Shown: piece after piece, positions 23,568 to 63,532 of the stretch
Layout: every line of letters begins with the position of its first letter
Numbering within the stretch: the first letter of the stretch is position 1
From: Mizuhopecten yessoensis
Taxonomy: Eukaryota
NCBI RefSeq assembly: GCF_002113885.1
Contig: NW_018408761.1
Location: 997,580 to 1,061,579 of the forward strand
Direction: 5' to 3'
Length of the DNA stretch: 64,000 nt
Translations under genes and position numbers: made by a program
The notes under the pieces: generated by a model
What the model was told of the DNA's origin: nothing
What the model saw: the letters and a program-made list of their open reading frames with translations, nothing else
Databases searched by the model: none

Positions 23568-23720
23568 AGATGTCAAAATCCAGCTTGAACAGTTTGAAAG
23601 GAAATTTTATTGAGGCAGTCTTTAAATGTTTATATAATTTTTTGTAATGAGTGGTGTCGGAGTTATCTGTGATTTTTTGCCCTGGATAAACGATTTTAGA
23701 TTTTTGTGGCTTTTCAATAG

Positions 23721-25165: not shown

Positions 25166-25340
25166 TTATAGATCTACACCTGGAAAGGTTGTGGAATTTC
25201 TGTTTTCATCTCCAATAATTATGTTCGTTGAACCAGTAGTGGATGATTCAACAGGTAATGTTGTTGGATCCATAGGGTTTGAATCCCGAAGTATTAAACC
25301 AGTTGTTGTTGAATGAGTAGTTGAATCAGTTGTTATACGC
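25166..25340 (-). CDS. Candidate nested gene, exon 3 (Ser/Thr-rich tail)
   Basis: Acceptor TTTAAACTCGACAG|. (R)RITTDSTTHSTTTGLILRDSNPMDPTTLPVESSTTGSTNIIIGDENRNSTTFPGVDL. Stop TAA at 25168-25166. 594+200+175 = 969 nt = 323 codons, so the model is frame-consistent. Confidence 0.35.
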
Positions 25341-25384
25341 CTGTCGAGTTTAAAAGTGAATAAATATTAGATTGGAATAATGCA

Positions 25385-26977: not shown

Positions 26978-27391
26978 GACTATGTTCTGCATTAAGGTTC
27001 ATGCAACTTTACATATTTATGTGCTTTTATCAGAAGAAAATGTCCCACAATATTTTTAAATCCTTGACTATGACCTTGACCTCTATGAAATTGCTTTGGG
27101 TCTTAAGTGTGGGAAGTGGACATCCCTGTCTAACAGACACATTTCTAGTTGAACCTGAAAAGAAGTTTCAGTCGTTCAATTGATGACAACCACGAATATG
27201 GGATTTACTCTGAAAAAGGCCTGTATTCTTTGTGTAAGATTAGAAAACAATGTTAGTATATAACAAAAATTCAAGTTATCTGACAGACACATGGTTTAAG
27301 CTGATTTAAGGCTAAGGGGCCAAGCAAATTATATCTCTACACTGAAAAACTTATTTAAAAAACAAAAACGCTAAGATGCAATAAAACTGAC

Positions 27392-27591
27392 CTTGAAATA
27401 GTTGATGGAGAACTTGGGTGTACTGGTGGTGTTAAGGGTTGTGTTACAGTACTCATCTGGTACATCCTGTAGTTGTAGTGTACATCTCCTAGTTGGACAC
27501 GGTTGCTGCCAGCCTGGTACACAAACTTAAACACTACCGCTGTGGTGGCAGCGGTGGGATGTGATAGGTCAGCACTGCATGTGGTGCCAAT
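27392..27591 (-). CDS. Candidate nested gene, exon 2
   Basis: Acceptor ATACCACTACAG|. IGTTCSADLSHPTAATTAVVFKFVYQAGSNRVQLGDVHYNYRMYQMSTVTQPLTPPVHPSSPSTIS. Donor CAAG|GTCAGT, phase 2. Confidence 0.4.
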
Positions 27592-27865
27592 CTGTAGTGG
27601 TATCACATCAGTGGAATAGCATGTCGATGTGAGATTTGTCCACGAGATGATGTCTGTTGTTGTTTAAATCCAAACTGTTTGTTTGGCCTCTTGTCAAATT
27701 TTAAAATGGTAACACTAGTTTTTGACTGACTAGTAGTAAGTTTTGACAAATCAGCCAGTTTGAGCAACTCAGTTGTTTCCATTGTTGCAACGTCCTCTTG
27801 ATTGGGATAAAAGTTCATATAAATCCCTGCCTCACTTAGATGGCTTTCCATGATGTACTTCTCAC

Positions 27866-28459
27866 GGTTGAATTTATCTGGACTCGAGAATTGTATAACA
27901 TTCTTTGAGTCAATAACACTAACACAAGAATAGAACCACTTAACATAATTGTTAGTCCAAGGATCTTGGTAAATAGCAGACATTTTGTGTCAGTTTTTCT
28001 CTTGTTTTTTGATAGTTTCGTGTTCTGCAAATCCTTTTTCGAAAATGTGACACTGATTATGGTCAAGACCTCTAACATCACTGCTATGGCCTTAACCATT
28101 TGTAAAATACTGACTGCCACCTTGCAACATCCTGCAATGTAGACATTAAGGAATATCAATGGAACATTTTCCCATACCAAAATCACATTTGCTCCGTCCA
28201 ATAGCCATGAGGGGAGGTGACTCTCATCCTTCACATCCATAATTATAACAATCACCTCTGTTATGTAAGTCATGGTTCCTATAACAGAGAAGGCAAGAAG
28301 TGATGACATCACACTACATGTACTAGGAAATGGTTCAAATACAAGGCCTTGTTCCAGGCCACTGACCTCATAATAAAACAGCCAATCACAAATTAGGTCA
28401 AAGGTCAACGCCAGAGATGAGATGATGAGAATCAAAATTTTGTTTGTGCGGGAATCCAT
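27866..28459 (-). CDS. Candidate nested antisense gene in PARP4 intron 20, exon 1: multi-pass membrane protein
   Basis: ATG at 28459. MDSRTNKILILIISSLALTFDLICDWLFYYEV...ILGLTIMLSGSILVLVLLTQRMLYNSRVQINST. Five hydrophobic 18-23 aa segments. Donor ACC|GTGAGA, phase 0 (the raw ORF runs on to a stop at 27836). Confidence 0.5.
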
Positions 28460-31334
28460 CTCTGTAGGAAATTCTTGATTTGTTTTGTCTCAACTGGTTA
28501 GTAAATCAAGTACGCTAGTGATGTCTGAAGTATATGTTATAAAATGACACCTCTTTTAGAGCCTATCACTTTTGGCCTCAACCCTTTTCCTATAATAACA
28601 AATGATGATAAATAGAAATACTTGGCGAAATAAAATTAGAGGTTATATATTTTGACAAAAATGATGTTACAAAATTTACTTGGTAAAGTTACCATTCTTG
28701 ATGCAAATCTATGAAGAAAATTGTTATCATTAAACATGTTTACCTATCAGCATTTTCCTGTAATTGTGTTTTTCAGCAAGAATGTTGGAATTTGAAAAAA
28801 TTCAAAAATGATGATATTGACTCTTAAATCAAATCTGGAAGACAAACATATTTTTCATTACACATGAATCGCATGTTGCTTATCGCTTACCTTTTGTAAC
28901 TTTAATAACAAATTTACCTGTATGCACATAGTGGTTTTCCTCGTCTTGAATGTTTATAATCAAGCTGTTTATCCTAGAGGACTTTGAGAAGAAAATGAAG
29001 CCCGCAATATCTTTCTACAACCATGGCTACAAATCTGTCTATTACTGAGATGTAGTAGATGGATTCTCAACAGTTATCTATTATATGAAGATGAGACTAA
29101 GACTGGTTAGTCCTAAGTGTATTTATTCTGTGTTGGGTGGCCCATGTTAAAAGTGATTATTACAGACATGTATTGTAAGTTTGTCTTGTCTTCTTTAAAT
29201 CATTATTGATCCATATGCATATATTTTGGTAATATTTTCTTAATTTAAAAATGATTGTTTACCGTATTCAGACTTCATGTTTGAGTTATGTTAATTTGAC
29301 CCTCCTGTACGGAACTGCAACTGTAGTTCTGGTAATATAACACTTCAGTGATTATTTAATTAAATATATATAAAAACAGATATTTAGCTTTTGACCTTGT
29401 TAACATTATCAATTTAAATTATAGGTTGTTTTTATATAATATGCAGCAATTTTTATGATTATGTGTGACAATATCCTTAATTTGGTAAACTCGTGACGAT
29501 ACAGAAATTGGCTTGTTCTCAGGGTTCACTGTTGGTGCTGTATGGTCTTTTTGTGAACATTGTTTACATTTGTATGAATTAAACATACACATCTCTGTAA
29601 AATTGTTTAGAAGTTTAAAAGTCCACCAGTATTTGTCCGTCCTGTTAACATACACATTTTGTGCTTGTCAGTTAATGTTATTTGTGACAGCTTTTCAACT
29701 GGATTTCTAAACAGTGATATAAGATATCTCTGTAGCTGTGGCTAAATCATCGGAGCAATGTAACGCTCTTTTTTCATTAAAACTGTGTTTAGGAAATAAT
29801 TTTTATGAACAAATTGAGGCAGCATAAGAGGGTTTTACGGTAATTCAACGTAAAGTTTGAAAATATTTATTCAATAAAAGAAAGGTTTTTTCTTATCAAA
29901 AAATTGTATAATTTTGATTTGTTAAATATACTTAAGTATTTGATAAAATATTAAATACTACTTCACTGTCTAAACCAGGCGGTTCAAATATAGATTTTTA
30001 TTTTGTCTAAAATAAGAATTTGGTTCCAGCAATGAAAATCTATTATACCGTTAAACAATTAGACTATCTACCATCCAGAACATGCAGGAAATCGGCTATC
30101 ATTGCTTGGTCCTAGCTAGGAGTGTTTGTCCACACTTATAGTTTTTGGTGATTATTTCAGAATCCAGAAGTCCAAAACTTATGAAATTTTATATGGTGAT
30201 TTACTGTTATATGCACATATGCAATGGTAGTTATAAAAGTTCATAAGGTCAAAGTCAATATGCACATGCATGTGCAATGGGAGTTTAAAAAGAGCGTAAG
30301 GTCAGTCACTATTGCTAAAACTTCATTGCCTGTGTGACCTGTCAGTGTTGCATTTTTAATTGTTGGTTATGCTTCATTTATACATTGTAGCACCATATAA
30401 CCTTGAACCCGTAATCCAAGATTGCAACAAGTCAAGGTCAAGGTCACTGATACTAATAATAAAACAGGAGTGATTTACTGTTAAAACTACATTTTATGAC
30501 TTGGTCAGTGTTTGTTATGATTGCAAATGTTACTTGGCAGATATCCTGTACATCTATAATGCCATATTTCCTTAATCCTGAAATCTAAGATGGCCGACAT
30601 CTATTGCTTCTGACTGGCTGAGACATAACTTTTGTTTTGTTAATACAATTTTGTTCATATGTCATGGAAAATGATGCTTATAAGGGACAGTCCATATGGT
30701 GAATATGAACATATTGTCCGATACCCATGAAACAAGTTGGCTGACATAGTTTCTCATTGGCTGGGGTTTCAACTTTGAAGTCATATTACCTAGTCTGTAA
30801 CTTTTTATTACAATGTTCCAAATTCCTAGTGATCACTGCATAAGACTTTTTCTTCGCAATTTTGCATTCTAGATAAACTGTCAGGATGGGGCCATTATTT
30901 GCTGACCTATATCTGAGTTCTATGTAATTGGTTCCTGATTTAAATACCTACTAAATTGTGTTCACATTGCATAAATCGCATTGTATATACTGCATTACCC
31001 CAAAATAATTTTGATTTTTCCTTATACATAATGTAATTGCATTAAAAAAGCCAAACAACACTTTCAAGGGCATAGTTAATGAATATTTATTCAAAAATAA
31101 TTTTGCACATAACACAGCATTAATGATTATGCTGTAACTTAATTCATCATCAAGCATCCATTCAGAATTTAAAATTAAAAATACTGCGACAAACATTGTG
31201 GTATAATTCACACCTGGGAAAATCATTGCAACAGTAAATATCACATGAAAGAAATGGGATGTTTAAATTTTGAATTGATGTGATTATTGAATAACGTCAA
31301 ATATACTGATTATAATGTTATAATGATATTTCAG

Positions 31335-33507: not shown

Positions 33508-33678
33508 ATGAACACTCAAGTTCAGAAGGCATGCCGTCCAGGTATTTCTGGTGTTAAAGTGGAGTGGCAGCAAAACATGGACACGACCAACAGACCTCTT
33601 CAGGCCCCTAATCACATCCCAAGTTTGTTTTCTGGGTCACGACAGGTCGTGTATGGCTTTGTACCTAACTGTACACAG
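33508..33678 (+). CDS. PARP4: PARP4-like exon 23
   Basis: Acceptor ATACTCTCCAG|. MNTQVQKACRPGISGVKVEWQQNMDTTNRPLQAPNHIPSLFSGSRQVVYGFVPNCTQ (compare vertebrate ..VSVKWQQ...LQAPAQVPSLF...LLVYGFIPHCTQ). Donor CAG|GTGAGA. Confidence 0.9.
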
Positions 33679-35760
33679 GTGAGAATTTTTATTACACTGA
33701 TGTGCTGGTAAGCAGGGGTTCAACTAGTTATATCTTTGTATGGCTTTGTACCTAACTGCACACAGGTGAGAATTTTTATTACACTGATGTGCTGGTAAGC
33801 AGGGGTTCAACTACTCCCCTCGGTAGGGACAAGTTATATCTTTGTATGGCTTTGTACCTAGCTGTACACAGGTGAGACTTTGTATTACACTGATGTACTG
33901 GTAAGCAGGGGTTCAACTACTCACCTCGTTAGGGACAAGTTATATCTTATCTTTGTATGGCTTTGTACCTAACTGTACACAGGCGAGAATTTTTATTACG
34001 AGGATGTGCTGGTAAGCAGGGGTTCAACTACTCGCCTCGTTAGGGACAAGTTATATCTTTGTATGGCTTTGTACCTGAATTTAGGCAGGGGAGGCTTTGT
34101 ATTACACTGATGTGCTGGTAAGCAGGGGCTCAACTACTCACCTCGGTAGGGACAAGTTATATCTTCATATGGCTTTGTACCTAACTGTACACAGGTGAGA
34201 ATTTTTATTACGAGGATGTGCTGGTAAGCAGGGTTTCAACTACTCACCTCGGTAGGGACAAGTTATATCTATGTATGGCTTTGTACCTAACTGTACACAG
34301 GTGAGACTTTTTATTACGAGGATGTGCTGGTAAGCAGGGGTTCAACTACTCCCCTCGGTAGGGACAAGTTATATCTTTGTATGGCTTTGTACCTGAATTT
34401 AGGCAGGGGAGGCTTTGTATTACACTGATGTGCTGGTAAGCAGGGGTTCAACTACTTATTTCTGGTGTTAAAGTGGAGTGGCAGCAAAACATGGACACGA
34501 CCAACAGACCTCTTCAGGCCCCAAATCACATCCCAAGTTTGTTTTCTGGGTCACGACAGGTCGTGTATGGCTTTGTACCTAACTGTACACAAGTGAGAAT
34601 TTTTATTACGAGGATGTGCTGGTAAGCAGGGTTTCAACTACTCACCTCGGTAGGGACAAGTTATATCTTCATATGGCTTTGTACCTAACTGTACACAGGT
34701 GAGAATTTTTATTACACTGATGTGCTGGTAAGCAGGGGTTCAACTACTCCCCTCGGTAGGGACAAGTTATATCTTTGTATGGCTTTGTGCCTAACTGTAC
34801 ACAGGTGAGACTTTGTATTACACTAATGTGCTGGTAAGCAGGGGTTCAACTACTCACATCGGTAGGGACAAGTTATATCACGCTTTATATCTAGATAAAA
34901 TAAAACGAGTTCATTACAAAGATGACCGGACAAAAAATGATGTATTCAATATCAATATCAATATTGATATATCTTTGTATGGCTTTGTACCTAACTGTAC
35001 ACAGGTAAGACTTTGTATTACACTGATGTACTGGTAAGCAGGGGTTCAACTACTTACCTCGTTAGGGACAAGTTATATCTTTGTATGGCTTTGTACCTAA
35101 CTGTGCACAGGTGAGACTTTGTATTACACTGATGTGCTGGTAAGCAGGGATTCAACTAGTTATATCTTTGTATGGCTTTGTACCTAACTGTACACTGGTG
35201 AGACTTTGTATTACGAGGATGTGCTGGTAAGCCGGGGTTCAACTACTCACCTCGGTAGGGACAAGTTATATCTATGTATGGCTTTGTACCTAACTGTACA
35301 CAGGTGACACTTTGTATTACGAGGATGTGCTGGTAAGCAGGGGTTCAACTACTCCCCTCGGTAGGGACAAGTTATATCTTTGTATGGCTTTGTACCTAAC
35401 TGCACACAGGTGAGAATTTTTATTACACTGATGTGCTGGTAAGCAGGGGTTCAACTAGTTATATCTTTGTATGGCTTTGTACCTAACTGCACACAGGTGA
35501 GAATTTTTATTACACTGATGTGCTGGTAAGCAGGGGTTCAACTAGTTATATCTTTGTATGGCTTTGTACCTAACTGCACACAGGTGAGAATTTTTATTAC
35601 ACTGATGTGCTGGTAAGCAGGGGTTCAACTAGTTATATCTTTGTATGGCTTTGTACCTAACTGTGCACAGGTGAGACTTTGTATTACACTGATGTGCTGG
35701 TAAGCAGGGGTTCAACTACTCACATCGGTAGGGACAAGTTATATCACGCTTTATATCTAG
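33543..35760 (+). repeat. Minisatellite (about 86-110 bp unit, about 19 copies) seeded from the last codons plus 5' splice site of exon 23; includes a 136-nt second copy of the exon 3' part at 34457-34592
   Basis: Each unit starts with TATGGCTTTGTACCTAACTGTACACAG|GTGAGA (YGFVPNCTQ plus donor). It continues with ATTTTTATTACACTGATGTGCTGGTAAGCAGGGGTTCAACTAC(TCACCTCGGTAGGGACAA)GTTATATCTTTG. Confidence 0.9.
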
Positions 35761-36078: not shown

Positions 36079-37118
36079 TTAGCTCACCTATGAGCTTATG
36101 GTATGGCGTGTTGTCACTCGTCTGTCATCCGCCCGTCATTGAGTCTGTCGTTCATCGTCCCATCAACGTTTTCTTTGAATGGCTTGTTCTCAAGAACTGG
36201 AGGACCTAGGGCCATGATATTTGTTCAGTAGGTACCTGGGACAGAGTGCTGTAATATTTTCTCAAATAAATGACCTTAACTTACTTTCTATGTCACAGGG
36301 GTTAAATATATAAAAAAACCTTTAAACAACTTCTTCTGAATAACCAGGAGGCCCAGAGTAATAATACTAGGTCAGTATGTACCTGGCATGAAGTGCTATA
36401 AAGTGTCCTCAAACAAATGACCTTGACTTACTTTCAAGGTCACAGGGGTCAAATGTGTTTAAAAACCTTTAAAACATCTTCTTCTGAATTTCTGAATAAC
36501 CAGTAGGCTAAGAGTCATGATATTTGGTTTGGCCAGTAGGTTCATGGGACAGAGTGCTATAAGTTTTCCTCCAATAAATAACCTTGACCTACTTTCAAGG
36601 TCATGGGTTAAATATGTAAAAAATAAATTAAACATCTTCTTCTAAATAACCAGGAAGCCCAAAGTAATAATACTTGGCCAGTAGGTACCTGGCATGAAGT
36701 GCTATAAAGTTTCCTCAAATAAATGATCTTGACATACTTTCAATGTCACAGGGTTCAAAATTGTAAAAATCTTTAAACAACTTCTTCTGAATAGCTAAGA
36801 GGCTTAGAGCAATGATATTTGGCTAGTAGGTACCTGGGACAGAATGCTATCACGTTTCCTCATATAAATTACCTAGACCTCCTTTACAGTCACAGGGTTC
36901 AAATATGTGAATACTTCTTCTGCAATACCAGGATGCCCTCATTGATGATGTTTGACAAGTAGCATGCTGGGATAGAGTAGTATAAAGCTTCATTTAGTCT
37001 GGAGCATTCTTAAGCCAAGGAAACTCAATATATTAAAATATTTACAAAAGTACTTTTATTGAGAATATTTTCCCATGATTGCTCAAATAACCAGGTGAGT
37101 GATAAGAGGGCCTCTTGT
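36079..37118 (+). mobile_element. Composite non-autonomous element, family A, with approximately 120-140-bp internal units
   Basis: Head TTAGCTCACCTATGAGCTTATGGTATGGCGTG. Tail AACCAGGTGAGTGATAAGAGGGCCTCTTGTA. The internal units are related to those at 20571-21494. Confidence 0.65.
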
Positions 37119-42549: not shown

Positions 42550-42726
42550 TCCCAATCGAGATACACACCCTGACTGGTAGGACTATCCCCGTGAGTGTGT
42601 CCGAGGGCGACACCGTGTCTGACTTGAAGAATAAGATCCATCAGATAGATGGACTTGACCCAGAGCAGCAGAGATTGATTGTTGGTGGGAAACCGCTGAA
42701 GGATCTCGCTGTTCTCTCCGATCTTG
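42550..42726 (+). CDS. PARP4: PARP4-like exon 30 (ubiquitin-like domain, first three quarters)
   Basis: Acceptor TTATTCCCATTGCAG|. (F)PIEIHTLTGRTIPVSVSEGDTVSDLKNKIHQIDGLDPEQQRLIVGGKPLKDLAVLSDL, which aligns with ubiquitin [58 protein letters not shown]. Donor CTTG|GTAATT, phase 1. Confidence 0.85.
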
Positions 42727-42744
42727 GTAATTATACCCCACATA

Positions 42745-44738: not shown

Positions 44739-46463
44739 TTTTAGCTCACCGGCCTGAAGGGCAAGTGAGCTTATGCTATGGCGCGGCGTCAGGCATCCGT
44801 CATCTTTTCCTAAAAAACGCTACTTGTCATAAACGACTGAGCAGATTTTGACCAAATTTGGTCAGAAGCATCCTTATGGGAAGGGGAACAAATTTTGTAT
44901 AAATGGTGGGTCTGGCCCCCTAGGGGCTGAGGGGTGGGGCCCAATAGGGAAAATATAGCAAATTCTTTAAAATCCTTCTTCTTTTGTAGGAATAAAAGGA
45001 TTGGTTCCATATTTGGTCTGAAGCATCCTTGGGGGAAGAGGAACCAATTTTGTATAAATGGGGGGTCTGGCCCCTGAGGGGCCTGAGCGACAGGCCAAAT
45101 AGGGGAAACATAGCAAATTCTTTAAAATCCTTCTTCTGTAGGAATGAAAGGATTTGTTCCATATTTAGTCTTAAGCATCCTTGGGTTAAGGGGAACCAAT
45201 TTTGTATAAACTGTGGGTCTGGCCCCTTTGGGGCCTGAGCGACGGGGCCCAATAGGGGAAACATAGCAAATTCTTTAAAATCTTTCTTCTGCAGGAATGA
45301 AAGGATTTGTTCCATATTTGGTCTGAAGCATCCTTGGGTGAAGTGGAACCGATTTTGTATAAGCAAGGGGTCTAGCCCCCATGGATCTGAGGGGCGGGGC
45401 CAAAAGGGGTCAATTGCGCTATATTGATTTAAGCGACTTCTTCTCTGGAACTAAGAGATGGATATCAACCATATTTGACTGGAAGCATCCCTCTGTAGTG
45501 GAGATTCACAATTGTACAAATGGTTGGGCTGACATCCCAGGGGGCTGAGGTGCGGGTCCAAAAGGGCGCAATTTGGCTATATTGGTGTACGACTTCTTCT
45601 GTAGCATTATACCATGGATATCGATCATATTTGGTCAGAAGCTTTCATGGGAAGTAGGGATTCAAAATTGTACAAATGGTGGGGCTGACCCCCCGTGCTA
45701 AGGGGTGGGGCCAAAAAAAGTTTATTACTTGGAAATGGTTGAGATCCCAACCATATAACCATATATATAATTGTGGAGTATGAAGAGAAGCATTCACATT
45801 TGCTTCAAGGATGGCCTAGGGTCTGGCCCCACCCTTTGAGACATAGTCCCTGGGTCATATCTTTGAAACGATTGAGATCCGCACCCCAGAACTATATATA
45901 CAAATGCTTGGCATAAAGAGACAAAAGTAGTCATGGTATTAAAATAGACCCTGGGGTCTGACCGAACCCCTAGGGACCTAGTTTCTTAGTCACAGCTTCG
46001 AAACAGTTGAGATCCCCACCCTATAACTATGCATATATACAATTGCTGAGTATAAAGAGATGAATGCACATATGCTTCCAGGATGGCCTTGGGGTCTGCC
46101 CAAACTTTGCAGACTTAACCCCTGGGTAAATATAACTTTGAAACAGTTGAGATCCCCACCCCAAGACTATAAATACAAATGCTAGACAAAAAGAGACGAA
46201 TATAGTCATGATATTATAATTGATCCTGGCGTCTGGCCACAACCCGAGGGATCTAGTTTCTGAGTCACAGCTTGGAAACAGTTGAGATCCCCACCCCATT
46301 ACCATACATTAAATTGCTGGGCATGAAAAATCTAATACAGACATACTACAAGAATTGACATTGGGGTCTGGCATATACCCTTGGATCTCATTTGGAGAAT
46401 ATTTTGCTTTTTGATTGCTTAGATATTCAGGTGAGGAATTCAGGCCCTCTGTGCCTCTTGTTT
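44739..46463 (+). mobile_element. Long family A composite element (three different internal tandem arrays), ending about 130 bp upstream of exon 31
   Basis: Head TTTTTAGCTCACCGGCCTGAAGGGCAAGTGAGCTTATGCTATGGCGCGGCGTC. Internal arrays of about 120 bp (44860-45400), about 165 bp (45400-45720) and about 150 bp (45720-46320). Tail TTCAGGTGAGGAATTCAGGCCCTCTGTGCCTCTTGTTT. Confidence 0.7.
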
Positions 46464-46593
46464 ACCATAAGAATACATCATATTTGATTGAGAGGATGTG
46501 CTTTTAGAGGTGGCAGCTGTTTTGATACAACGTTATGTGAGGGCATGAGTTAGCCTCTATATAACAATTGTATTTTTTTTCTATATTCTTCAG

Positions 46594-46694
46594 ATCTGGA
46601 GTATAATGCTGTCTTCCTGTTACCAAGGCTGCGAGGGGGACTTAGTTTTGGTCTCAAGGAAGATTTGAAAACAAAGCGTATTCTCGCGGAAAAC
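46594..46694 (+). CDS. PARP4: PARP4-like exon 31 (ubiquitin-like domain C-terminus with RLRGG)
   Basis: Acceptor TTTTCTATATTCTTCAG|. (D)LEYNAVFLLPRLRGGLSFGLKEDLKTKRILAEN. RLRGG is at 46626-46640. Donor AAC|GTATGA, phase 0. Read-through of the donor gives V then TGA. Confidence 0.8.
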
Positions 46695-46777
46695 GTATGA
46701 TATGACAATAAGACATAAAATGTGGATTCCACTCTCAAAAATCTAAGGGTGGGGTAGAAAGTGGTTTATTGGACATT

Positions 46778-48637
46778 TTTAGCTCACCTGCCCGAACGGC
46801 AAGTGAGCTTATGCCATGGCGCGGCGTCCAGCATCCTTCAACTTTTCCTAAAAATCGCTACTAGTCATAAACGACTGAGCAGATTTTGACCAAATTTGGT
46901 CAGAAGCATCCTTATGGGAAGGGGAACAAATTTTGTATAAATGGTGGGTCTGGCCCCCCTGGTGGCTGAGGGGTGTGGCCCAATAGGGAACACATAGTAA
47001 ATTCTTTAAAATCCTTCTCCTTCTGTAGGATTGAAAGGATTTGTTCCATATTTGGTCTGATGCATCCTTAGAGAAAGAGGAACCAATTTTGTATAAACCG
47101 TGGGTCTGGACCCCGAGGGGCCTGAGGGGTGGGGCCCAATAGGGAACACATAGTAAATTCTTTAAAAACCTTCCTCTTCTGTAGGAATGAAAGGATTTGT
47201 TCCATATTTGGTCTGAAGCATCCTTAGGGAAAGAGGAACCAATTTTGTATAAACCGCGGGTCTGGCCCCCGAGGGGCCTGAGGGGTGGGGCCCTATAGGG
47301 ATCACATAGTAAATTCTTTAAAATCCTTCCTCTTCTGTAGGAATAAAAGGATTTGTTCCATATTTAGTCTGAAGCATCCTTGGGTAAAGGGGAACCAATT
47401 TTTTATAAACCATGGGTCTGGCCCCACAGGGGCCTGAGCGACGGGGCCCAGTATGGGAAACTGAACAATTTCTTTAAAATCCTTCTTCTCTGTAGGAATG
47501 AAAGGATTTGTTCCATATTTGGTCGGAAGCATCCTTCGGTGAAGGGGAACCAATTTTGTATAAACAAGAGGTCTGGCCCCCAGGAACTTGAGGGGCGGGG
47601 CCAAAAGGGGGCAGTTGCGCTATATTAATTTAAGCGACTTCTTCTCTGGAACTAAGGGATAGATATCAACCATATTTGACTGAAAGCATCCCTCGGAAGA
47701 GGAGATTCAAAATTGTACAAATGGTTGGGCTGACCCCCCGTGCTAAGGGGTGAGGGTTGCTATTAACGACTTATTCTGTAGAATTATGCTAAGGATATCA
47801 ATCATATTTGGTCAGAAGTATTCATGGGAGGTAGGGATTCAAAATTGTACAAATGTTTGGGCTGACCCCCCTGTGCTAAGGGGTTGGGCCAAAAAAGGTT
47901 TATTACTTGGAAATGGTTGAGATCCCCGCGGTATAACCATATATACAATTGTGGAGTATAAAGGGAAGCATGCACATTTGCTCCCAGGATGGCCTAGGGT
48001 CTGGCCCCACCCTTTGAGACATAGTCCCTGGGTCATAACTTTGAAATGATTGAGATTTCCACCCCAGAACTATATATACAAATGCTTGGCATATAGAGAC
48101 AAAAGTAGTCATGGTATTAGAATAGACCCTGGGGTCTGACCGAACCCCTAGGGACCTAGTTTCTTAGGCAAAGCTTCGAAACAGTTGAGATCCCCACCCT
48201 ATAACCATGCATATATACAATTGCTGAGTATGAAGAGATGATTGCACATATGCTTCCAGGATGGCCTTGGGGTCTGCCCCACCCTTGCAGACTTAACCCC
48301 TGTGTCATAACTTTGAAACAGTTGAGATCCCCACTTTAAAACTATATACAAATGCTGGGCTTAAAGAGAAGAAACCAGTCATGATATTAAGAATTGATCC
48401 AGGGGTCTGGCCACAACCCTAGGGATCTAGTTTCTGAGTCACAGCTTGGAAACAGTTGAGATCCCCACCCCATAACCATACATTAAATTGCTGGGCATGG
48501 AAAATCTAATACAGACATACTACAAGAATTGGCATTTGGATCTGGCATATTCCCTTGGATCTCATTTGGAGAATATTTTGCCATGATTGCTTAGATATCC
48601 AGGTGAGCGATTCAGGCCCTCTGGGCCTCTTGTTTTT
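46778..48637 (+). mobile_element. Long family A composite element, starting about 84 bp downstream of exon 31
   Basis: Head TTTTTAGCTCACCTGCCCGAACGGCAAGTGAGCTTATGCCATGGCGCGGCGTC. Same array order as 44739-46463. Tail TCCAGGTGAGCGATTCAGGCCCTCTGGGCCTCTTGTTTTTT. Confidence 0.7.
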
Positions 48638-48765
48638 TAAATCTACTCTTCATGAATGATAGGTTTCTTCAGTACCTTTAAATTGTGAATGCAATTACCC
48701 TGATGTCTCCCATTCACCACTGGGAAGGGGGAAATTCTGCTACATTTCCTATGGTTATAACAGCT

Positions 48766-50481
48766 TTTAGCTCACCTGGTCCGAAGGACCAGGGTGAGCT
48801 TATGCCATACCATGGCATCCGTCGTCCGTACGTACGTCAACAATTTCTTTAAACGACTTCTTCTTCTTAACCACTGGTTGGAATTAAACTAATTTTGACT
48901 GGAAGCATCCCTAGGTGGTTGGGATTCAAAATTGTACAAATGGTGGGGCTGACTCCCCAGGGGGCTGAGGGGTGGGGCCAAAAGGGGTCAATTTGCCCAT
49001 ATTGCTGTAAGCGACTTCTTCTCTGGAACTAAGAATTGGATATCAACCATATTTGACTGGAAGCATCCCTAGGTGGTGGTGATTAAAAATTGTACAAATG
49101 GCGGGGCTGACTCCCCAGGGGGCTTAGGGGGGGCCAAAAGGGGGCAATTTTGCTATATTGCTACAAACGACTTCTTCTGTAGAACTGTGCACTGGATATC
49201 AATCATATTTGATCAAAAGCATTCCTGGGAGGCAGGGATTTAAAATTGTACAAATGGTGTGGCTGACCCCCCAGGGGGCTGAGGGGCAGGGCCAAAAAGG
49301 GTATTTGGCTATACTGCTTTAAGTGACTTCTTCTCTGGAACTAAGTGATGGATATCAACCTTATTTGACTGGAAGCATCTCTAGGTGGTGGAGATTCAAA
49401 ATTGTACAAACGGTTGGGCTGACCCCCCAGGGGGCTGAGGGGCGGGGCCAAAAGGGGGCAATTTGGTTATATTGCTATAAATGACTTCTTCTGCAGAACT
49501 ATGCCATGGATATTGATCATATTTGGTCGGAAGTATTCATGGGAGGCAGGGATTCAAAATTGTACAAATGGTGGGGCTGACCCCCCGGGCTAAGGGGTGG
49601 GGCCAATAAAATGTATTACTTGGAAATGGTTGAGATCCCCACCATATAACCATATATACAATTGCTGAGTATAAAGAGAAGAATGCACATTTGCTTCCAG
49701 GATGTCCCTAGGGTCTGGCCCCACCCTTGGAGACATAGTCCCTGGGCCATAACTTTAAAACGGTTGAGATCCCCACCCCAAAACTATATATACAAATGCT
49801 GGGCATAAAGAGACGAATGCAATCATGATATCAGAATAGACCCTGGGGTCTGACCGAACCCCTAGGGACCTAGTTTCTTAGTCACAGCTTGGAAACAGTT
49901 GAGAGCCCCACCCTATAACCGTATATATACAATTGCTGAGTATAAAGAGATGATTGCACATATGCTTCCAGGTTGGCCTTGGGGACTGCCCCACCCTTGG
50001 AGACTTAACCCCTGGGTCATAACTTTGAAATGGTTAATATCCCCACCCCAAAACTATATATACAATTGTTGGGCATAAAGAGACGAATGCAGTCATGACA
50101 TTAGAATTGATCCCAGGGTCTGCCCCACCCTTGCAGACTTGGCCCCTGGGTCATAACTTTGAAACGGTTGAGATCCCCACACCAAAACTTTATATACAAA
50201 TGCTTGGCAAAAAGAGACAAATGCAGTCACGATATTAGAATCGATCCTGGGGTCTGGCCACAACTCTAGGGACCTAGTTTCTGAGTCAAAGCTTGGAAAC
50301 AGTTGAGATCCCCACCCCATAACCATACATAAAATTGCTGGGCATGAAAAATTTAATATAGCTATGCTACAAGGATTGGCCTTGGGGTCTGGCATATTCT
50401 CTTGATCTCATTTGGAGAATAGTTTGCCATGATTGCTTAGGTATCCAGGTGAGCGATACAGGCCCTCTGGGCCTCTTGTTT
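48766..50481 (+). mobile_element. Long family A composite element (third consecutive copy)
   Basis: Head TTTTAGCTCACCTGGTCCGAAGGACCAGGGTGAGCTTATGCCATACCATGGCATCCGTCGTC. Tail TCCAGGTGAGCGATACAGGCCCTCTGGGCCTCTTGTTT. Confidence 0.7.
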
Positions 50482-50554
50482 ATTTATCCTCAGCAGAAAA
50501 TAATTCAGTTCAATTTTTGTTATGGCATGGCATCGATATAGAATCTATTTTAGT

Positions 50555-51060
50555 TGTTGTACAACATAAAGATTTGTGGTTAAATTCTAAGCTATGAGAT
50601 ATGAAGTCTCTCTTACTCACCGGTACTCAGTATAACATGAAGATTTGTGGTTAAATTCTTAGCTATGAGATATGAAGTCTCTCTTACTCACCGGTACTTA
50701 GTATAACATGAAGATTTGTGGTTAAATTCTTAGCTATGAGATATGAAATCTCTTTTACTTGCTGTATAACATGAAGATTTGTGGTTAAATTCTTAGCAAT
50801 GAGATATGAAATCTCTTTTACTTGCTGTATTATATGGAGATTTGTGGTTATATTCTCAGCTATATGATATAGAATCTCTTTTACTTGGTGTATAATATGG
50901 AGATTTGTAGTTATATTCTCAGCTATATGATATAGAATCTCTTTTACTTGCTGTATAACATGTAGATTTGTGGTTAAATTCTCAGACATGTGATATAGAA
51001 TATCCTTTACATGGGGAAAATATGAAGTTTGTTGGTAAATTATTAGCTATTTTTAGTGAA
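50555..51060. repeat. 62-71-bp minisatellite, about 8 copies, 170 bp upstream of exon 32
   Basis: The (A/G)AGATTTGTGGTTAAATTCT.AGCTATGAGATATGAA.TCTCT.TTACT.. units are spaced 71, 71, 63, 62, 65, 63 and 62 bp apart. This generates ORF 50684-50989 (-). Confidence 0.9.
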
Positions 51061-51232
51061 CATTGATTAATCAGCCTTAATATTTTTACTTTTGTCAGTT
51101 AAACTATATTTAGTCACTATACTCAATGTAAACTTCTTAATAATACCCACAAAAACCACAGAAGCAATGATTCATGAGTTTACTATTGTACAGTACAGGT
51201 ACATGTGAAGTATTAACATTTCTGTATTTCAG

Positions 51233-51459
51233 GACATGAATGAGTATGATCAGATATATGGTAAGAAGGTGCATACGGAAAAGGACAAAAGCTGTACTGA
51301 TGATGGAAAAAACCCGGTGAAGATGTCCTCATTGTTTTCTCCTTTTAGGCAATCCTTACGAATGATGGCTCCAAGGAAACAGTTAGCAACCAAAGCTGCC
51401 AGAAAATCTGCACCTGCAAACTTTGATGAAAATGAGGAGGAGCAGAATGAGGATGACAG

Positions 51460-51497
<38 letters not shown>

Positions 51498-54313
51498 TTG
51501 AAAAGATGGGCAACTTTAGCTGCATGGCACTTCCAGATGACAACGTGGTTGATGATGCTACGAACAAGAAACAGGAAGTGTCAGATGTAGGAAGAATACC
51601 AGACTCTCCACTCTCAGCAACACAGTTTGGCCCCTTGTCTCCAAAATGTTCAGATTCATTTGGTACAAACTTTGAAAAATTTGAAATCTCTCAGTATTTA
51701 GATGAAGACATGGAGATTGATTTAGATACTGAAGACCCGGCATTCCTCATTCTCACTTCTGAAATATCTGACATATTTTCACCTTCAATGGCAGGCCATT
51801 CTCAGGACACTCCAGCCTATATATCAACCTCCCCATCTTACAAACCAACTTCCCCATCCTATTCGCCCACTTCCCCATCTTACAAACCAACTTCCCCATC
51901 CTATTCGCCCACCTCCCCATCTTACAAACCAACTTCCCCATCCTATTCGCCCACCTCCCCATCTTACAAACCAACTTCTCTATCCTATTCGCCCACTTCC
52001 CCATCTTACAAACCAACTTCTCCATCCTATTCACCAAATAGAAGAGCACGAAGAGCCAAATCAACATTTGAGGATTTCCAACATGAATCAACATCAAACA
52101 ATAAAGATTTTGTGGTTTCAGGTTCAAGACAAGCAAAGTCAAGCAGCACATCTAGTGAACATGGTTTGTGTGGAGCTCCAGTGCAAGCAGAACCAGGCAG
52201 TAAACCAAGTCAGAGCTTCAATTTTAATGCTTCGCTACAAACAGCATCAAGCAATGAACCAACACAAAGTTTGGGATTGGGGGCTCCAAACCTAGCAGAA
52301 CTAGGCGGTAAACCAAGTCAGGGGTTCAATTTTAGTGCTCCTCTAGTAACAGCATCAAGAAATATATCAACACAAAGTTTGGGATTGGGGGCTCCAAACC
52401 TAGCAGAACCAAACACAATGCCAAGTCAAGGGTTTTCCTTTGGAGCTCGAATGCAAACAACTCAAAGCGCTTCACCAGCCGAAGGTTTCAGTTTTTCTCA
52501 GAATCAAACATTGCAGAGCATTACCAGTAAAGGAAGCCATTGTTTTGGATTTGGGACTTCAAAACCAGCCGGAGCAAGCAGAACGACAAGTCAAGGGTTT
52601 TCCTTTGGCGCTCAAATGCAGTCCCAACGATGCAATATACCAACCCAAGATTTCTATTTTGGAGCTTCAAATTCAGCAGGTTTTGGAGATGACGGTGACA
52701 GACGTGGTGGTTATGGAGGTGTCAGTGTTAGACCTGGTGGTTATGGAGATGACAGTGACAGACGTGGTGGTTATGGAGGTGTCAGTGTTAGACGTGGTGG
52801 TTATGGAGGTGTCAGTGAGGGACTTGGTGGTTATGGAGGTGTCAGTGTTAGACGTGGTAGTTATGGAGGTGACAGTGTTAGATGTGGTGGTTATGGAGGT
52901 GTCAGTGAGGAATGTGGTGGTTATGGAGGTGTCAGTGAGGGACTTGGTAGTTATGGAGGTGTCAGTGAGGGACTTGGTAGTTATGGAGATGACGGTGTCG
53001 GACGTGGTGGTTATGGAGATGACAGTGTCGGACGTGGTGGTTATGGAGGTGACAGTGTCGGAGGTGATGGTTATGGAGGTGTCAGTGAGGGATTTGGTGG
53101 TTATGGAGGTGACAGTGAGGGATGTGGTGGTTATGGAGGTGTCAGTGTTAGATGTGGTGGTTATGGAGGTGTCAGTGAGGGACGTGGTGGTTATGGAGGT
53201 GACAGTGAGGGACGTGGTGGTCCTAGACTTGCTGGTTCTAAAGATGGACATGTTTCTTACATAGAAACAGCACCAACATTTACATATTTGAAGGATCTTG
53301 ACTTGAATTTAGCAAAACATGATCCAAAAACTAGGATATTGAAGGAAAATGACAGAAGACCTTCCAGTGTAACAGAGAAGGATCTGCCTTCACAGCCTTT
53401 CAGACATGTACAGGATAAAATGTTCCCACCAGACTTTGATGAATCCTTATTACCTAAACAAAAGAGAAAAATTCCTCCTGTTGGAAGAGGAGGTTCTGGA
53501 TTCACTGCAAGGAATGACCAGGGTCCTGCTGAAACAACCAAAGAACAAGGTCGAAGGTCATTAAAGTCAGTCAGAGGCGCAATGCATGGTGCAAGATCAA
53601 GAGACAGAAATAGGGAACAATCTCGTGAGCTTATTGTGCTGGATAAGAGTAAAAAACTAAGTTTGAGTCATGACAGAAGGCGGAGGAGTTTGAGTAGAAG
53701 TTTGAGTCGAGACAGAAGACAGAGGAGTTTGAGTAGAAGTTTGAGTCGAGACAGAAGGCGGAGGAGTTTGAGTAGAAGTTTGAGTCGAGACAGAAGGCGG
53801 AGGAGTTTGAGTAGAAGTTTGAGTCGAGGAAGGGGGAGAAGAGACTTGGAAAGATGTTACAGTAGAGATAGAGCAAGAAAGGAAAATAAAAAAATGCACA
53901 GATCAAGTGGAAATAATGATACAAACAGTAGGAATAAAAATAGGGACAAAGCAGGAAGCAAAATAGACAGAGATCCTGCAAGAGAAAGTAAGAAACAGAT
54001 AAAGCATAAAAATGAAAAGAAGGAGCAAACAAAGGCTGATGAACAGGTTGTCAAAACATTTGGGAAAAAAGGGAAGAAAAGGGAACAGACAAGGGATGAT
54101 GAAGAGATTGTCAAAACTGGAGGGAAGAACCTGTCAGGAAAGTTGGAATATGATGATCATGAGAAAATGGACTTTACAGTGGACATGGCACCAACTTTGA
54201 AAGTCTGGGATGTAACATCAGAGACAGGCAAGGACATTGTGAAATTCATAAAGTATATTTCTGATTCAATCTTCTTTTATATACAAAAGATCTGTAATTT
54301 TCTACAAATTCAA
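51233..54313 (+). CDS. PARP4: PARP4-like exon 32: 3081-nt low-complexity exon (H3-tail copy, poly-Asp, CTD-like heptads, FG-like, GGYGG, RS and Lys-rich modules)
   Basis: Acceptor TTCTGTATTTCAG| with phase 0 from exon 31. Single open frame of 1027 codons (the track ORF 51236-54337 is the same frame). Donor CAA|GTGAGC after ..KICNFLQIQ (compare vertebrate PARP4 ..SCFLQIK..). An alternative weaker donor is ATCT|GTAATT after 54293. Confidence 0.8.
51368..51418 (+). other. Histone H3 tail copy: [17 protein letters not shown] (identical to H3 residues 15-31)
   Basis: Direct translation of GCT CCA AGG AAA CAG TTA GCA ACC AAA GCT GCC AGA AAA TCT GCA CCT GCA in the exon 32 frame. Confidence 0.9.
51461..51496 (+). 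repeat. (GAT)12 coding microsatellite, poly-Asp tract
   Basis: Twelve uninterrupted GAT codons within [18 protein letters not shown]. Confidence 0.95.
51824..52039 (+). repeat. RNA polymerase II CTD-like heptad array (42-bp two-heptad unit, about 10 heptads)
   Basis: [72 protein letters not shown]. Confidence 0.9.
52214..52687 (+). other. FG-nucleoporin-like segment
   Basis: SFNF, GFNFS, GFSFG, GFSFS, CFGFG, GFSFG, FYFG and AGFG motifs, separated by uncharged S/T/Q/N/A/G/P-rich spacers. Includes a 34-aa duplicated unit ([20 protein letters not shown]). Confidence 0.7.
52700..53221 (+). repeat. 30-bp coding tandem repeat, about 17 copies of the decapeptide (R/L/C)GGYGG(V/D)S(V/E)(R/G)
   Basis: [50 protein letters not shown]...[14 protein letters not shown]. 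Other frames on both strands stay open across it because of the repeat. Confidence 0.9.
53657..53833 (+). repeat. 42-bp coding tandem repeat, 4 copies of [14 protein letters not shown] (RS-domain-like)
   Basis: [62 protein letters not shown]. Confidence 0.9.
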
Positions 54314-54344
54314 GTGAGCTTAAGTGAACTTTCTTGATTAGCTT

Positions 54345-54975
54345 GTAATGATATACAGTCCTGCAGTAAAACTTGTCTAAGAACTCACCTGTCTAAATCA
54401 TCTTGTAGTGTTACAGTCCTACAGTAAAACTTGTCTTAGAACTCACCTGTCTAAATCATCTTGTAATTATATTTATACAGCCCTACAGTAAAACTTGTCT
54501 AAGAACTCACCTGTCTAAATCATCTTGTAATTATATATATACAGTCCTACAGTAAAACTTGTCTTAGAACTCACCTGTCTAAATCATCTTGTAATTATAT
54601 ATATACAGCCCTACAGTAAAACTTGTCTAAGAACTCACCTGTCTAAATCATCTTTTAGTGTTACAGCCCTACAGTAAAACTTGTCTAAGAACTCACCTCT
54701 CTTAATCATCTTGTAATTATATATATACAGTCCGACAGTAAAACTTGTCTTAAAACTCACCTGTCTAAATCATCTTTTAGTGTTACAGCCCTACAGTAAA
54801 ACTTGTCTAAGAATTCACCTGTCTAAATCATCTTGTAGTGTTACAGTACTACAGTAAAACTTGTCTAAGAATTCACCTGTCTAAATCATCTTGTAGTGTT
54901 ACAGCCCTACAGTAAAACTTGTCTAAGAACTCACCTGTCTTAATCATCTTGTAATTATATATATACAGTCCTACA
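54345..54975. repeat. 57-65-bp minisatellite, about 10 copies, starting about 30 bp after the exon 32 donor
   Basis: CCTACAGTAAAACTTGTCT(A/T)AGAACTCACCTGTCTAAATCATCTTGTA(GTGTTACAG / ATTATATATATACAG) repeated. Confidence 0.9.
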
Positions 54976-55605
54976 GCATTTCATGTCTCAGAATCGATTT
55001 GTGTAAACCAACTTGTGTCCATGTTATATTTCATGGTAATCTCAAAATCCAAGATGGTTGCCCTTAGTTATCCTTTTCATTGGGTAAAACCCTTCCTCTG
55101 AGACATTTTCAATTTTTGTATACTAGAAAATGTTTCTTATGTGAAACTCAAATAATGTTGTTACTTTTCATGACAAAAATACAAGATAGCCACCAATGGC
55201 TCCGATTTGCAGACAGTTGCTATTTCTCTATAACAGTAGCAATTGACTTCTAACTAATCTAAATGATTCAAATTTAATGTTCCTGTATTGTTTAAAAAAA
55301 ATGTAATTCATGTGAGCGTTAAAGCTTATTTCGTTTCTTGTTATTATACATATATCTACACTGTCCATAACAACCAAATGCATGCTCAAGGAAAGGCTAA
55401 CTGTTAAAACAGAATCTGATGTCATGCACTTTTTTCCCATATTGATCATTAAGTTTCATTCAACAAACCTTAATCGTTGGATATGGAAAAAATATCCTAG
55501 AATAGATAACAAACTACAGTTTAGAAGTATCATAAATCATTTGGTATATCTAGAACATCTAATTAAAAAGAAAAGAGAATAATAACATTTGTTCTATTGT
55601 TACAG

Positions 55606-55733: not shown

Positions 55734-56228
55734 TTTTAGCTCACCTGGCCCCTTGGCCCATGCCGTGGTGCGGCATCCGGCGTCAATATTTTACTTTAAA
55801 CAACTTCTCAATAACCAAAAGGCCCTAGGTACTGATATTGGGCCTGCAGCATGCTGGGATGAAGGGCTACCAAGTTTGTTCAAATGAATGACCTTGACCC
55901 ACTTTCAAGGTCACAGGAGTCAAATATCTTAAAATCTTCAAACAACTTCTTCTCAATAACCAAAAGGCCCAGGGTACTGATATTGGGCCTGTAGCATGCT
56001 GGGATGAAGGGCTACCAAGTTTGTTCAAATGAATGACCTTGACCCACTTTCAACCCAATATCCTTGTTCGACATTCAAGGTCACAGGCGTCATATGTTTA
56101 AATCTTGTAATAGGATCTTATGAATCAAACACTGATATTCTGCCTGTAGCTGTATTTTAGTCCACTCTTAAGATTACAAGTGTGAAATAATACCAGGTGA
56201 GCGATGCAGGCCCATTGGGCCTCTAGTT
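55734..56228 (+). mobile_element. Family A composite element, about 94 bp after exon 33
   Basis: Head TTTTTAGCTCACCTGGCCCCTTGGCCCATGCCGTGGTGCGGCATCC. About 120-bp units as in 20571-21494. Tail ACCAGGTGAGCGATGCAGGCCCATTGGGCCTCTAG. Confidence 0.65.
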
Positions 56229-62239: not shown

Positions 62240-62640
62240 TAAAGTTGCCTGGGTGTTCCTTTCATGCACGGTTCAGTCTTGACTACCGTTCAATAAAGGC
62301 AGTGTTTACAATTTCAGGTGTTAGATTGTTCCAGAGTTCTTTAGTCACACGGTGTGAAAAAGCGTTTCCTCTTAGTTTTGTTCCAAAACGTTTTTTGTTG
62401 TGTCCTCTAGTGTTGTGCATGTTCTGTCCAGTCGCGAATATTGTGAATTTATCTACATTGGCCTCCACCAGACCGTTTATTTTATGGTGTGAATTAATAT
62501 TTGCTGTCAGGATAAATTTGCAGTCATTATGGACAGCTAAAAAGGCTAAAGTTAAACTGCTCCGAACATTTCCCGATATACAGTGTAACTGCTTAGGGAA
62601 TGAGAGTTGGAGGTACGTGTTGTAAATAGTTTATATCTTC
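62240..62640 (-). mobile_element. 3' fragment of a LINE-type retrotransposon
   Basis: The - strand ORF 62283-62468 reads ..NTRGHNKKRFGTKLRGNAFSHRVTKELWNNLTPEIVNTAFIER. This is a degenerate form of the common non-LTR ORF2 C-terminal pattern TRGH..KL.......R..FFS.RV...WN.LP..VV.A.S...F. Boundaries are approximate. Confidence 0.45.
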
Positions 62641-62689
62641 GGGGGCAAAGACTTAGGAAAAGGATTGTTAAATATAGCAGAACTGGACT

Positions 62690-62790
62690 GGGTCGATCTC
62701 GGCGACCAGGTAGCTCAGTTGGTATAGCGTCCGTCAAGAGTTCGGAGGTACTAGGGTTCGAACCCCAGTCTGGCCGTTGCATTTCAGACT
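62690..62790 (+). mobile_element. tRNA-derived SINE head (not a functional tRNA)
   Basis: GACCAGGTAGCTCAGTTGGTATAGCGTCCGTCAAGAGTTCGGAGGTACTAGGGTTCGAACCCCAGTCTGGCCG has A-box and B-box-like motifs. However, the D, anticodon and T stems are mismatched and position 33 is not T. Confidence 0.5.
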
Positions 62791-63532
62791 TTCTACTGTT
62801 ACACAGATATGATATACATTATGTTTCAGTTGTGTATCTTGTTATTATTATTATATAACATAATTGTGTGGAACCCAAACTACTTCAAACGAAATTATTC
62901 TAAGGTGCTTCATATTCAAGAAATGATGTACAGCATTCCACACAGAAGAGTGTGGGAACATCCTTACTGAAGCCCATCATACAACTTGATTCTCATTAGT
63001 GCCTTTGTGAGGGTGTGCGAGTGTGTATTAAAGGATGTATAGGTGTTCTGCTTGTTTTGCGTCAGTATTTTTAACAGCTCATTTATCATGCTTTAACAGT
63101 GGACTACTGCAGCATGGAAACCATAAAACTAACATACTACAGGTTTTATATTGTGTTACGGTTACAGAATTTGATGTGCAGTATTATTTTATACTAGTTG
63201 AAGGTTCAAAATATTAAGCACCATACTACAGTTTTGTAAAAACTTTTTTTCTGAGAATTATTCATCCAAAATAATATTCATGAAGGTTCAGATTCAAGAA
63301 GGAGCAAAAAGTTATATATGTTTAAATATTTTCTTAAAGGGGCATCACGGTGAAGTAACTTTATTTTTTGTCTTTTTTTCAAATACTACATAAACATATC
63401 AAGTGAGACTTCTTATGGAAAAAAACGATCGGATTTGGCTGAAATAGATTCATAAAAATGATTAAATCTAAGAAAATCATCGGTATTTCTACCTGTCTGA
63501 CCAACGTTTTGTTCAGGGATTTCCCTCTACTG

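Follow-up and report, generated by a model that had tools for sequence, protein, structure and literature searches.

Length-variable coding tandem repeats in disordered regions have been described in yeast proteins (bioRxiv 10.1101/339663), and Nopp140 of Drosophila has a large repetitive second exon (bioRxiv 10.1101/513978). Here we describe a further instance of such coding repeats, in a giant exon that lies downstream, and on the same strand, of what sequence comparison identifies as an orthologue of PARP4, in a 64,000-nt stretch of DNA from the mollusc Mizuhopecten yessoensis (NW_018408761.1, positions 997,580-1,061,579 of the forward strand; hereafter the window, whose own numbering is used below). 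Similar to the yeast and Drosophila repeats, those of the window are in-frame mini- and microsatellites, all within a single large exon whose protein is of low complexity and probably of nuclear type, their units are near-identical in DNA, and their copy number differs between lineages. In contrast with these systems, the window exon holds five different arrays, each of which multiplies a motif from another class of nuclear protein, and variation in copy number is known here from comparison of species. The locus is, in our view, probably best explained as a long coding exon of mollusc PARP4 whose coding arrays have grown in place, the minisatellites on either side being independent intronic arrays.

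The giant exon occupies positions 51233-54313 of the forward strand (3,081 nt, 1,027 codons) and is in phase 0 at both ends. Its acceptor, ttctgtatttcAG/GAC, consists of a pyrimidine tract with AG at 51231-2, and its putative donor is CAA/GTGAGC at 54314. The open reading frame (ORF) of the exon spans 51236-54337 and encodes 1,033 aa, beginning with an in-frame ATG at 51236 and, should the donor go unused, ending at a stop codon at 54335-54337. The exon is truly coding. No in-frame stop occurs among the 708 codons outside all arrays, while the two alternative frames contain 25 and 71 (P ~3e-19, computed from the stop frequency of the window), and GC content by codon position is 46/44/31%. All the coding arrays, moreover, have periods divisible by three (3, 42, 108, 30, 39 and 60 bp) and 0% indels, whereas the flanking arrays display 4-6% indels and units of mixed length.

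It could be argued that this frame is non-functional, either decaying or open by chance, and held open mainly by repeat units that are free of stops. The repeat units do generate long ORFs in the remaining frames and on the opposite strand too, no Pfam domain was found in the protein at E values up to 0.1, and the variants of one of its arrays (GGYGG, see below) are all non-synonymous. Neither of two very large protein collections, moreover, contained a homologue of the unique parts: a word-index search of 5.8 billion proteins for relatives of the unique sequence returned plant H3 as its sole match, and a HMMER search of 1.84 billion representatives produced only period-10 low-complexity matches, all of them to the GGYGG array. 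Against this proposal stand the absence of stops from the unique codons and the differing composition of the three codon positions, the lack of indels in the arrays, the mostly synonymous variation of a second array, an identity of 17/17 residues to histone H3, and the presence of related modules in two other phyla-level lineages. A non-functional ORF is thus the least credible of the explanations considered here, and we regard it as highly improbable.

The protein encoded by the giant exon is a chain of low-complexity modules, which follow each other in the order H3-tail copy, Asp12, heptads, FxFG motifs, R-G-G-Y-G-G decapeptides, a unique stretch, an RS array, a Lys/Arg-rich tail and a hydrophobic end. 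We take this stretch of protein, which is repeat-rich, of low complexity and without a recognised domain, to be intrinsically disordered. Tandem arrays were called with Tandem Repeats Finder (TRF) over 49.0-56.5 kb. An earlier note on this DNA had presented the exon as itself made of four coding arrays. All four exist, but the description was overstated, since arrays cover only ~37-38% of the 3,081 bp, the rest being unique sequence, and it was also incomplete, as an array of 108-bp units and an old 60-bp duplication had been missed.

The first module (51347-51418, forward strand) was detected by phmmer against H3 peptides of the PDB. Residues 38-61 of the ORF align without gaps to H3 residues 8-31 (24 aligned), and within this stretch H3 residues 15-31 are matched exactly (17/17); Q and M take the places of K9 and K14, and K18, K23 and K27 are kept. 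The match is confined to the H3 tail (residues ~8-32), and the giant exon contains no histone fold and no Pfam histone match. Known examples of histone-tail mimicry are the ARSK tail of influenza NS1, the ARKT automethylation site of G9a and the K27M-like peptide of EZHIP. Similar to these mimics, a short stretch of the window protein copies the H3 tail together with modification sites (K18, K23, R26, K27 and S28). In contrast with them, the copy is much longer (17 consecutive identical residues within the 24 aligned), is known from sequence alone, and appears to be derived from H3 coding sequence, its counterpart in Lottia aligning to H3 residues 3-61.

The H3-like module is followed by a perfect (GAT)12 microsatellite at 51461-51496 (forward strand; TRF score 77), which encodes Asp12 and is exactly as the earlier note had it. 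A tract resembling the C-terminal domain (CTD) of RPB1 then extends over 51818-52036 of the same strand and comprises ten heptads plus YSP, namely YISTSPS, four copies of YSPTSPS, four of YKPTSPS and one of YKPTSLS. The core of the tract is a 42-bp two-heptad array of 4.9 copies at 96% identity (51827-52032; TRF score 377), in agreement with the unit reported previously. Against RPB1 chains the tract gives phmmer E values down to 5e-75, and PDB matches occur only at residues 192-268. Variant codons of the array are in a ratio of four synonymous to one non-synonymous. Like the RPB1 CTD, therefore, the window exon encodes tandem YSPTSPS heptads (four exact and six variants); unlike RPB1, it lacks the RPB1 core, has ten heptads only, is set in a PARP4 gene context, and displays Lys at position 2 of every second heptad (YKPTSPS). 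As the DNA units are 96% identical, the heptads of the window were amplified recently from a two-heptad unit.

The FxFG-like region opens with the 108-bp coding repeat that had been overlooked (2.1 copies at 88% identity, 52186-52411, forward strand; TRF score 361). Some seven FxFG-type motifs, counted by eye, lie between ~52190 and 52680, and the FG nucleoporin family gave no Pfam match at E values up to 0.1 and no structured domain. The largest array, GGYGG, extends from 52679 to 53221 on the forward strand and has 18.1 copies of a 30-bp unit at 87% identity (TRF score 694), confirming the earlier description. Its unit encodes R-G-G-Y-G-G-[V/D]-S-[V/E]-[R/G], in which the codons GGT GGT TAT GGA form an invariant core. 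The RS-type array exists as well (53659-53828, forward strand; 4.4 copies, 95% identity, TRF score 312), but its unit is 39 bp (13 aa) and not 42 bp. An RRM, which SR proteins combine with an RS domain, was not found in the giant exon by Pfam. Finally, a repeat search identified the old coding duplication of 60 bp in the Lys-rich tail (two copies at 75% identity, 54017-54129, forward strand).

The earlier note had also proposed that the exon grew by repeated internal duplication rather than by a single capture event. Units within arrays are near-identical in DNA (87-100%), synonymous sites included; identical units recur (CTD units 1 and 3, RS units 3 and 4, GGYGG units 1 and 3 and also 8 and 16); and the edges of the arrays are degenerate. 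Identity ranges from 75% in the 60-bp pair, through 87-88% in the GGYGG and FG arrays and 95-96% in the CTD and RS arrays, to 100% in the GAT array, which indicates a range of ages. Growth by internal duplication is supported, because of these near-identical units and because motifs that are single-copy in Lingula and Lottia (see below) are arrayed in the window. It should be emphasized, however, that duplication, taken as array length minus one founder unit per array, explains only ~1.0 kb of the 3.08 kb, about a third, and that ~2 kb of the exon are unique. At the corresponding place Lingula has a single ORF of 2 kb, and Lottia has the region in at least six blocks. Thus, as ~2 kb are unique and the Lingula ORF already measures 2 kb, the exon is giant largely for reasons other than duplication. 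Nor does the exclusion of capture hold for every module: the H3-like one is best accounted for by H3 coding sequence that was captured long ago, and Lottia has it too.

We propose that the five in-frame arrays and the one old duplication arose in place from short founder motifs, replication slippage or unequal exchange being the presumed mechanism of array building. Selection would have passed only those changes that keep the frame, and in the CTD array would also have filtered the sequence. The arrays would multiply short linear motifs (Asp, the YSPTSPS heptad, FxFG, RGG-Y-GG and RS) and would in this way alter motif copy number, or valency, in a disordered tail without creating new folds. 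The flanking minisatellites would be neighbours of the coding arrays, neither their cause nor their product.

The upstream intronic minisatellite (50535-51050; TRF period 63, 8.0 copies, 84% matches, 4% indels) ends ~180 bp before the acceptor of the giant exon. Units of both flanks were separated by splitting on an anchor motif, which in the upstream array yields units of 71, 71, 63, 63, 63 and 63 bp with a GC content of 30%. The downstream minisatellite (54346-54976; period 58, 10.3 copies, 87% matches, 6% indels) begins 33 nt past the putative donor, mixes 58- and 64-bp units, has a GC content of 33%, and can alternatively be described by TRF as a 122-bp dimer of 5.1 copies. The positions previously assigned to the two arrays agree with TRF to within 20 bp, the unit ranges of 62-71 and 57-65 bp were fair, in view of the measured 63/71 and 58/64 bp, and the arrays are indeed unrelated to each other, sharing only chance matches of 9-13 nt. 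Their designation as AT-rich is correct in direction, as GC content falls below the 37% of the window (43% in the giant exon), but the bias is only mild. The window contains no second copy of either array, and no relation of their units to those of the coding arrays was found.

It has been suggested, again in the earlier note, that this concentration of slippage-prone arrays makes the locus a hotspot for length variation. In its strongest form this would mean that exon and flanks constitute a local instability domain, in which a recombination or slippage hotspot drives the coding arrays, all of them strongly length-polymorphic. There are indeed seven arrays in 4.4 kb, including a perfect (GAT)12, CTD and RS arrays of 95-96% identity and a GGYGG array of 18 copies, and array content varies between species. 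The density of arrays is, however, equally high outside the exon. The window as a whole contains 27 arrays of period 10 or more, which make up 21% of its length (20% outside the giant exon), and in the 7.6 kb upstream of the exon (43.4-51.05 kb) the sum of array intervals amounts to ~60%. When a 3,081-bp segment is placed in the window at random, arrays within 200 bp are encountered on both sides in 7% of cases; flanking of the giant exon by arrays is thus not beyond chance for this window. Minisatellite birth appears to be a general trait of locus and genome, and not of the giant exon, because the gene also carries a 106-bp splice-donor minisatellite (see below). As the flanking units are, in addition, related neither to the coding units nor to one another, a common instability domain is unlikely. 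On sequence grounds (GAT)12 and the arrays of highest purity would be plausible hotspots, but the idea is weakened by flanks that belong to a window-wide minisatellite load and contribute no more than background. The way in which arrays differ from species to species fits a change of length over long periods, present-day polymorphism being presumed.

The placement of the giant exon in PARP4 is supported by the organization of the upstream gene. Exons at 11.1-14.6 kb match human PARP4 at 2.4e-65, and PARP2 at only 1e-17; exons at 19.6-40.6 kb align to residues 639-1213 of human PARP4 at 7.6e-142; and the closest relatives in the databases are the PARP4 proteins of Solemya velum (60% identity), Lottia gigantea and Saccostrea (50%). 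The PARP catalytic, VIT and vWA parts in the window are closest to PARP4 and, like those of the human enzyme, are colinear up to human residue 1213. In contrast with human PARP4, a ubiquitin-like (UBL) domain precedes the giant exon; no similarity between the giant exon and human PARP4 was detected. A search of the window for MINT, the C-terminal domain by which PARP4 binds the vault protein MVP, gave no PDB match in the forward-strand ORFs of 54.3-64 kb or in the C-terminal part of the giant exon, and the domain may lie beyond the window or may be too diverged. The UBL domain of the window ends in RLRGG, follows the vWA region and is absent from human PARP4 in the alignment.

Two exons on the forward strand encode the UBL domain. 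The first (42550-42727; ubiquitin matches at ~1e-9) is entered and left in phase 1, and the second (46594-46694), located by tblastn and encoding ..LEYNAVFLLPRLRGG.., is entered in phase 1 and left in phase 0. The acceptor of the second exon follows tattttttttctatattcttcAG, a strong pyrimidine tract, and its donor is AAC/GTATGA. From UBL exon 1 through UBL exon 2 to the giant exon the phases therefore form an unbroken chain (1>1, 1>0, 0>0). The PARP4-like proteins P0181, P0186 and P0208 carry VIT, vWA and UBL in a single chain, which in P0181 and P0186 is followed by a low-complexity tail. Given the common strand, the AG and GT sites, the fit of phase and the synteny with modules in Lottia and Lingula, to which we now turn, the giant exon is most likely the variable C-terminal part of mollusc PARP4, and we infer that it is spliced into the PARP4 mRNA.

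Counterparts were sought in lophotrochozoan PARP4 loci by reading the DNA downstream of the gene models. In Lottia gigantea (KB201931.1, L003) unannotated ORF blocks occur on the same strand at 20423-28526, within 8 kb after a partial PARP4 model, and the PARP4 gene model of this species is probably truncated. The blocks contain a perfect (GAT)11.7, encoding Asp12 in an exon-like ORF; an FG-rich ORF with a Pro-rich stretch and a single SPSYSPTSE; and an RS-type 51-bp coding array of 5.2 copies without indels. One further ORF, which matches more than 100 H3 chains by phmmer (best E value 3.4e-4), harbours two H3-tail-like stretches, recovered by tblastn of H3 residues 1-62 at E=2e-6 and 0.012. 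The first of these aligns over H3 residues 3-61 and includes an exact GVKKPHRYRPG; the second, RTTQSARFSTGGKA, corresponds to H3 residues 2-15 and has Thr and Phe at the positions of K4 and K9.

In Lingula anatina (LFEI02001411.1, L007), the exons that follow vWA are succeeded by an acidic exon and then by an exon with a single exact heptad (SPAYSPTSPSF; Lingula stretch SQHEVSPAYSPTSPSFY), whose alignment to the heptad stretch of the window has a shuffle z of 5.8. A single ORF of 676 aa contains ~10 FG motifs (counted by eye), one RGRGGYSFGG and poly-Pro, and is similar to the FG region of the window exon (tblastn E=0.004, shuffle z=4.4). This ORF is annotated as a separate 751-aa gene without Pfam match (14410-17308), which includes the single heptad and directly follows a PARP4-like vWA gene; in all probability the annotation has detached it from PARP4, whose C-terminal part it would be. 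The modules occur in the same order, acid, heptad, FG and RGGY, in Lingula and in the window. They differ in copy number: the heptad is present once in Lingula and once in Lottia but ten times in the window, and the single RGGY of Lingula compares with 18 GGYGG units. Between the window and Lottia, the unique N- and C-terminal parts of the exon display a weak colinear similarity (z=3.5 and 3.2).

In Solemya velum (L002) a gene after PARP4 (62292-63403) starts with VSYSGTSPTSY, continues with RGGCRGRGRG and then becomes RS-rich over a long distance; in this species, the closest relative available, the gene may correspond to the giant exon, and the locus ends there. One post-vWA exon appears to be inverted in this assembly. 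With respect to a counterpart the loci of Candidula and Solemya, which end too early, of Acropora, which is gapped, and of Ridgeia, which has satellites and a retroelement, were uninformative.

Several findings weigh against the explanation preferred here. Membership of the exon in the PARP4 mRNA rests on splice-site shape, phase and synteny. Outside the motifs, similarity to Lottia and Lingula is weak, with shuffle z values of 2.6-4.4 and several blast E values above 1, and in the DNA examined Tegillarca and Saccostrea lack the modules, except for a run of D9 in Saccostrea. With regard to growth in place, the resemblance between adjacent units does not significantly exceed that between units farther apart (permutation P=0.11-0.8), so that the order of duplications is unreadable. 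The variant codons of the GGYGG array, at 0 synonymous to 15 non-synonymous, fit relaxed or diversifying evolution and not simple purifying selection. At the splice sites, an in-frame stop directly follows the donor of UBL exon 2, the giant ORF has an ATG 3 nt past its acceptor, and its stop lies 24 nt past the putative donor. Because of this ATG at the start of the exon and of stops close after both donors, the exon could belong to a separate or alternative transcript.

The giant exon could, then, be a stand-alone gene or an alternative terminal exon, with its ATG at 51236 and its stop at 54335, and PARP4 would end at the stop after UBL exon 2. Such an arrangement would account for the ATG, which has G at -3, for the in-frame stop 24 nt past the donor, and for the in-frame TGA inside the donor of 46594-46694. 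It is also in keeping with the separate annotation of the Lingula equivalent (751 aa), with the RS-rich 488-aa gene after Solemya PARP4, and with the finding of no MINT match downstream. Against it stand the strong pyrimidine tract and AG directly before the ORF, an exon length that is a multiple of three and a phase that fits the preceding exon. There is no AATAAA within 1.2 kb downstream of the giant-ORF stop, P0181 and P0186 run past the UBL domain into a disordered tail, and the separate models elsewhere are automatic predictions on unfinished assemblies. We therefore regard a stand-alone gene or terminal exon as less probable than an arrangement in which the exon belongs to PARP4, but as the likeliest of the alternatives.

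The comparison between species also bears on the proposal that the exon is cargo of a mobile element, for example through Helitron-type capture, in which H3, RPB1, nucleoporin, RGG and SR pieces were picked up together and the satellites are part of the element. The exon is indeed a mosaic of pieces that resemble unrelated host proteins, and the window is full of satellite families, which often accompany mobile elements. A search for inverted repeats (16 nt or more) on either side of the exon found none, however, and the two flanking arrays, which are of unrelated sequence, each occur at a single site in the window. The array units are near-identical in DNA, which would not be expected of a captured RPB1 CTD. 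Like modules are found downstream of PARP4 in Lottia and Lingula, indicating that the arrangement is old and syntenic, and no relatives of the giant exon were found among metagenome or viral contigs. Capture as mobile cargo is thus very unlikely, and the data continue to favour a PARP4 exon with arrays grown in place.

Other features of the window can be described briefly. The satellite families, with units of 134-160 bp or multiples thereof, recur in many introns of the gene (14677-15926, 18764-19228, 20660-21357, 26377-26697, 36214-36908, 44852-50345 and 55800-56100) and give rise to long spurious ORFs in several frames; some of them have G/C-rich cores, for example GGGGCTGAGGGGCGGGGCC. The PARP4 exon encoding ..SGSRQVVYGFVPNCTQ is doubled (33526-33678 and 34458-34592), the two copies being 100% identical over 45 aa. 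Within 33526-35718 a 106/87-bp minisatellite repeats the ~30 last nucleotides of this exon together with its GTGAGA donor at least ten times, and thereby supplies a row of potential decoy splice donors. A BRCT-like ORF at ~4.7-5.0 kb was recognised by eye alone. On the reverse strand, 1227-2606 encodes a charged ORF of 459 aa that is coiled-coil-like by eye, and 27836-28459, within a PARP4 intron, encodes a hydrophobic ORF of 207 aa that is apparently multi-pass membrane-like; neither has a Pfam family above threshold, and neither was matched in the assemblies collection. ARAGORN predicts a tRNA-Ser with anticodon AGA at 62703-62777 (forward strand), and Rfam and tRNA scans of the giant-exon region identified no Rfam family or tRNA. 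Two candidate links were rejected. A Logan contig (L001), 97% identical over 30 aa of the VIT domain, has no DNA in common with the window and comes from a different species. A 'KQLP' motif that seemed to connect the giant-exon donor with both a small exon (55607) and the ORF at 28182-28526 in Lottia found no tblastn support, an off-frame match being equally good.

Lysine-to-methionine replacements in H3 peptides are known to inhibit SET-domain methyltransferases; the H3-like module of the window has Met at the position of K14. According to a review, there is a link between vaults and the nuclear pore complex (PMC2964712). It is conceivable, if speculative, that lophotrochozoan PARP4 possesses a conserved polyvalent 'tail-mimic' region, composed of the H3-tail copy with Gln and Met in place of Lys, CTD heptads, FxFG motifs, RGG/GYG repeats and RS array, which would let a vault-associated ADP-ribosyltransferase dock with, or soak up, enzymes and readers of chromatin, Pol II, the pore and splicing, with minisatellites tuning the valency of the bait in each lineage. 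A literature search returned no papers that couple PARP4 with YSPTSPS, and such a region is not known to have been described for any PARP.

That arrays prone to slippage occur within and beside a low-complexity exon is, in an invertebrate genome rich in repeats, the outcome of an ordinary process. The value of this locus lies instead in what the arrays multiply and where they do so, in that single ancestral motifs appear to have been expanded in one lineage, and in a setting, the C-terminal half of the vault PARP, that is little understood. In addition, it draws attention to a part of the PARP4 genes of Lottia and Lingula that apparently lacks annotation. The arrays may thus provide a natural series of 'valency alleles' with which to ask whether CTD kinases, importins, arginine methyltransferases or SR kinases are recruited by such arrays when the protein that carries them is not the cognate one.

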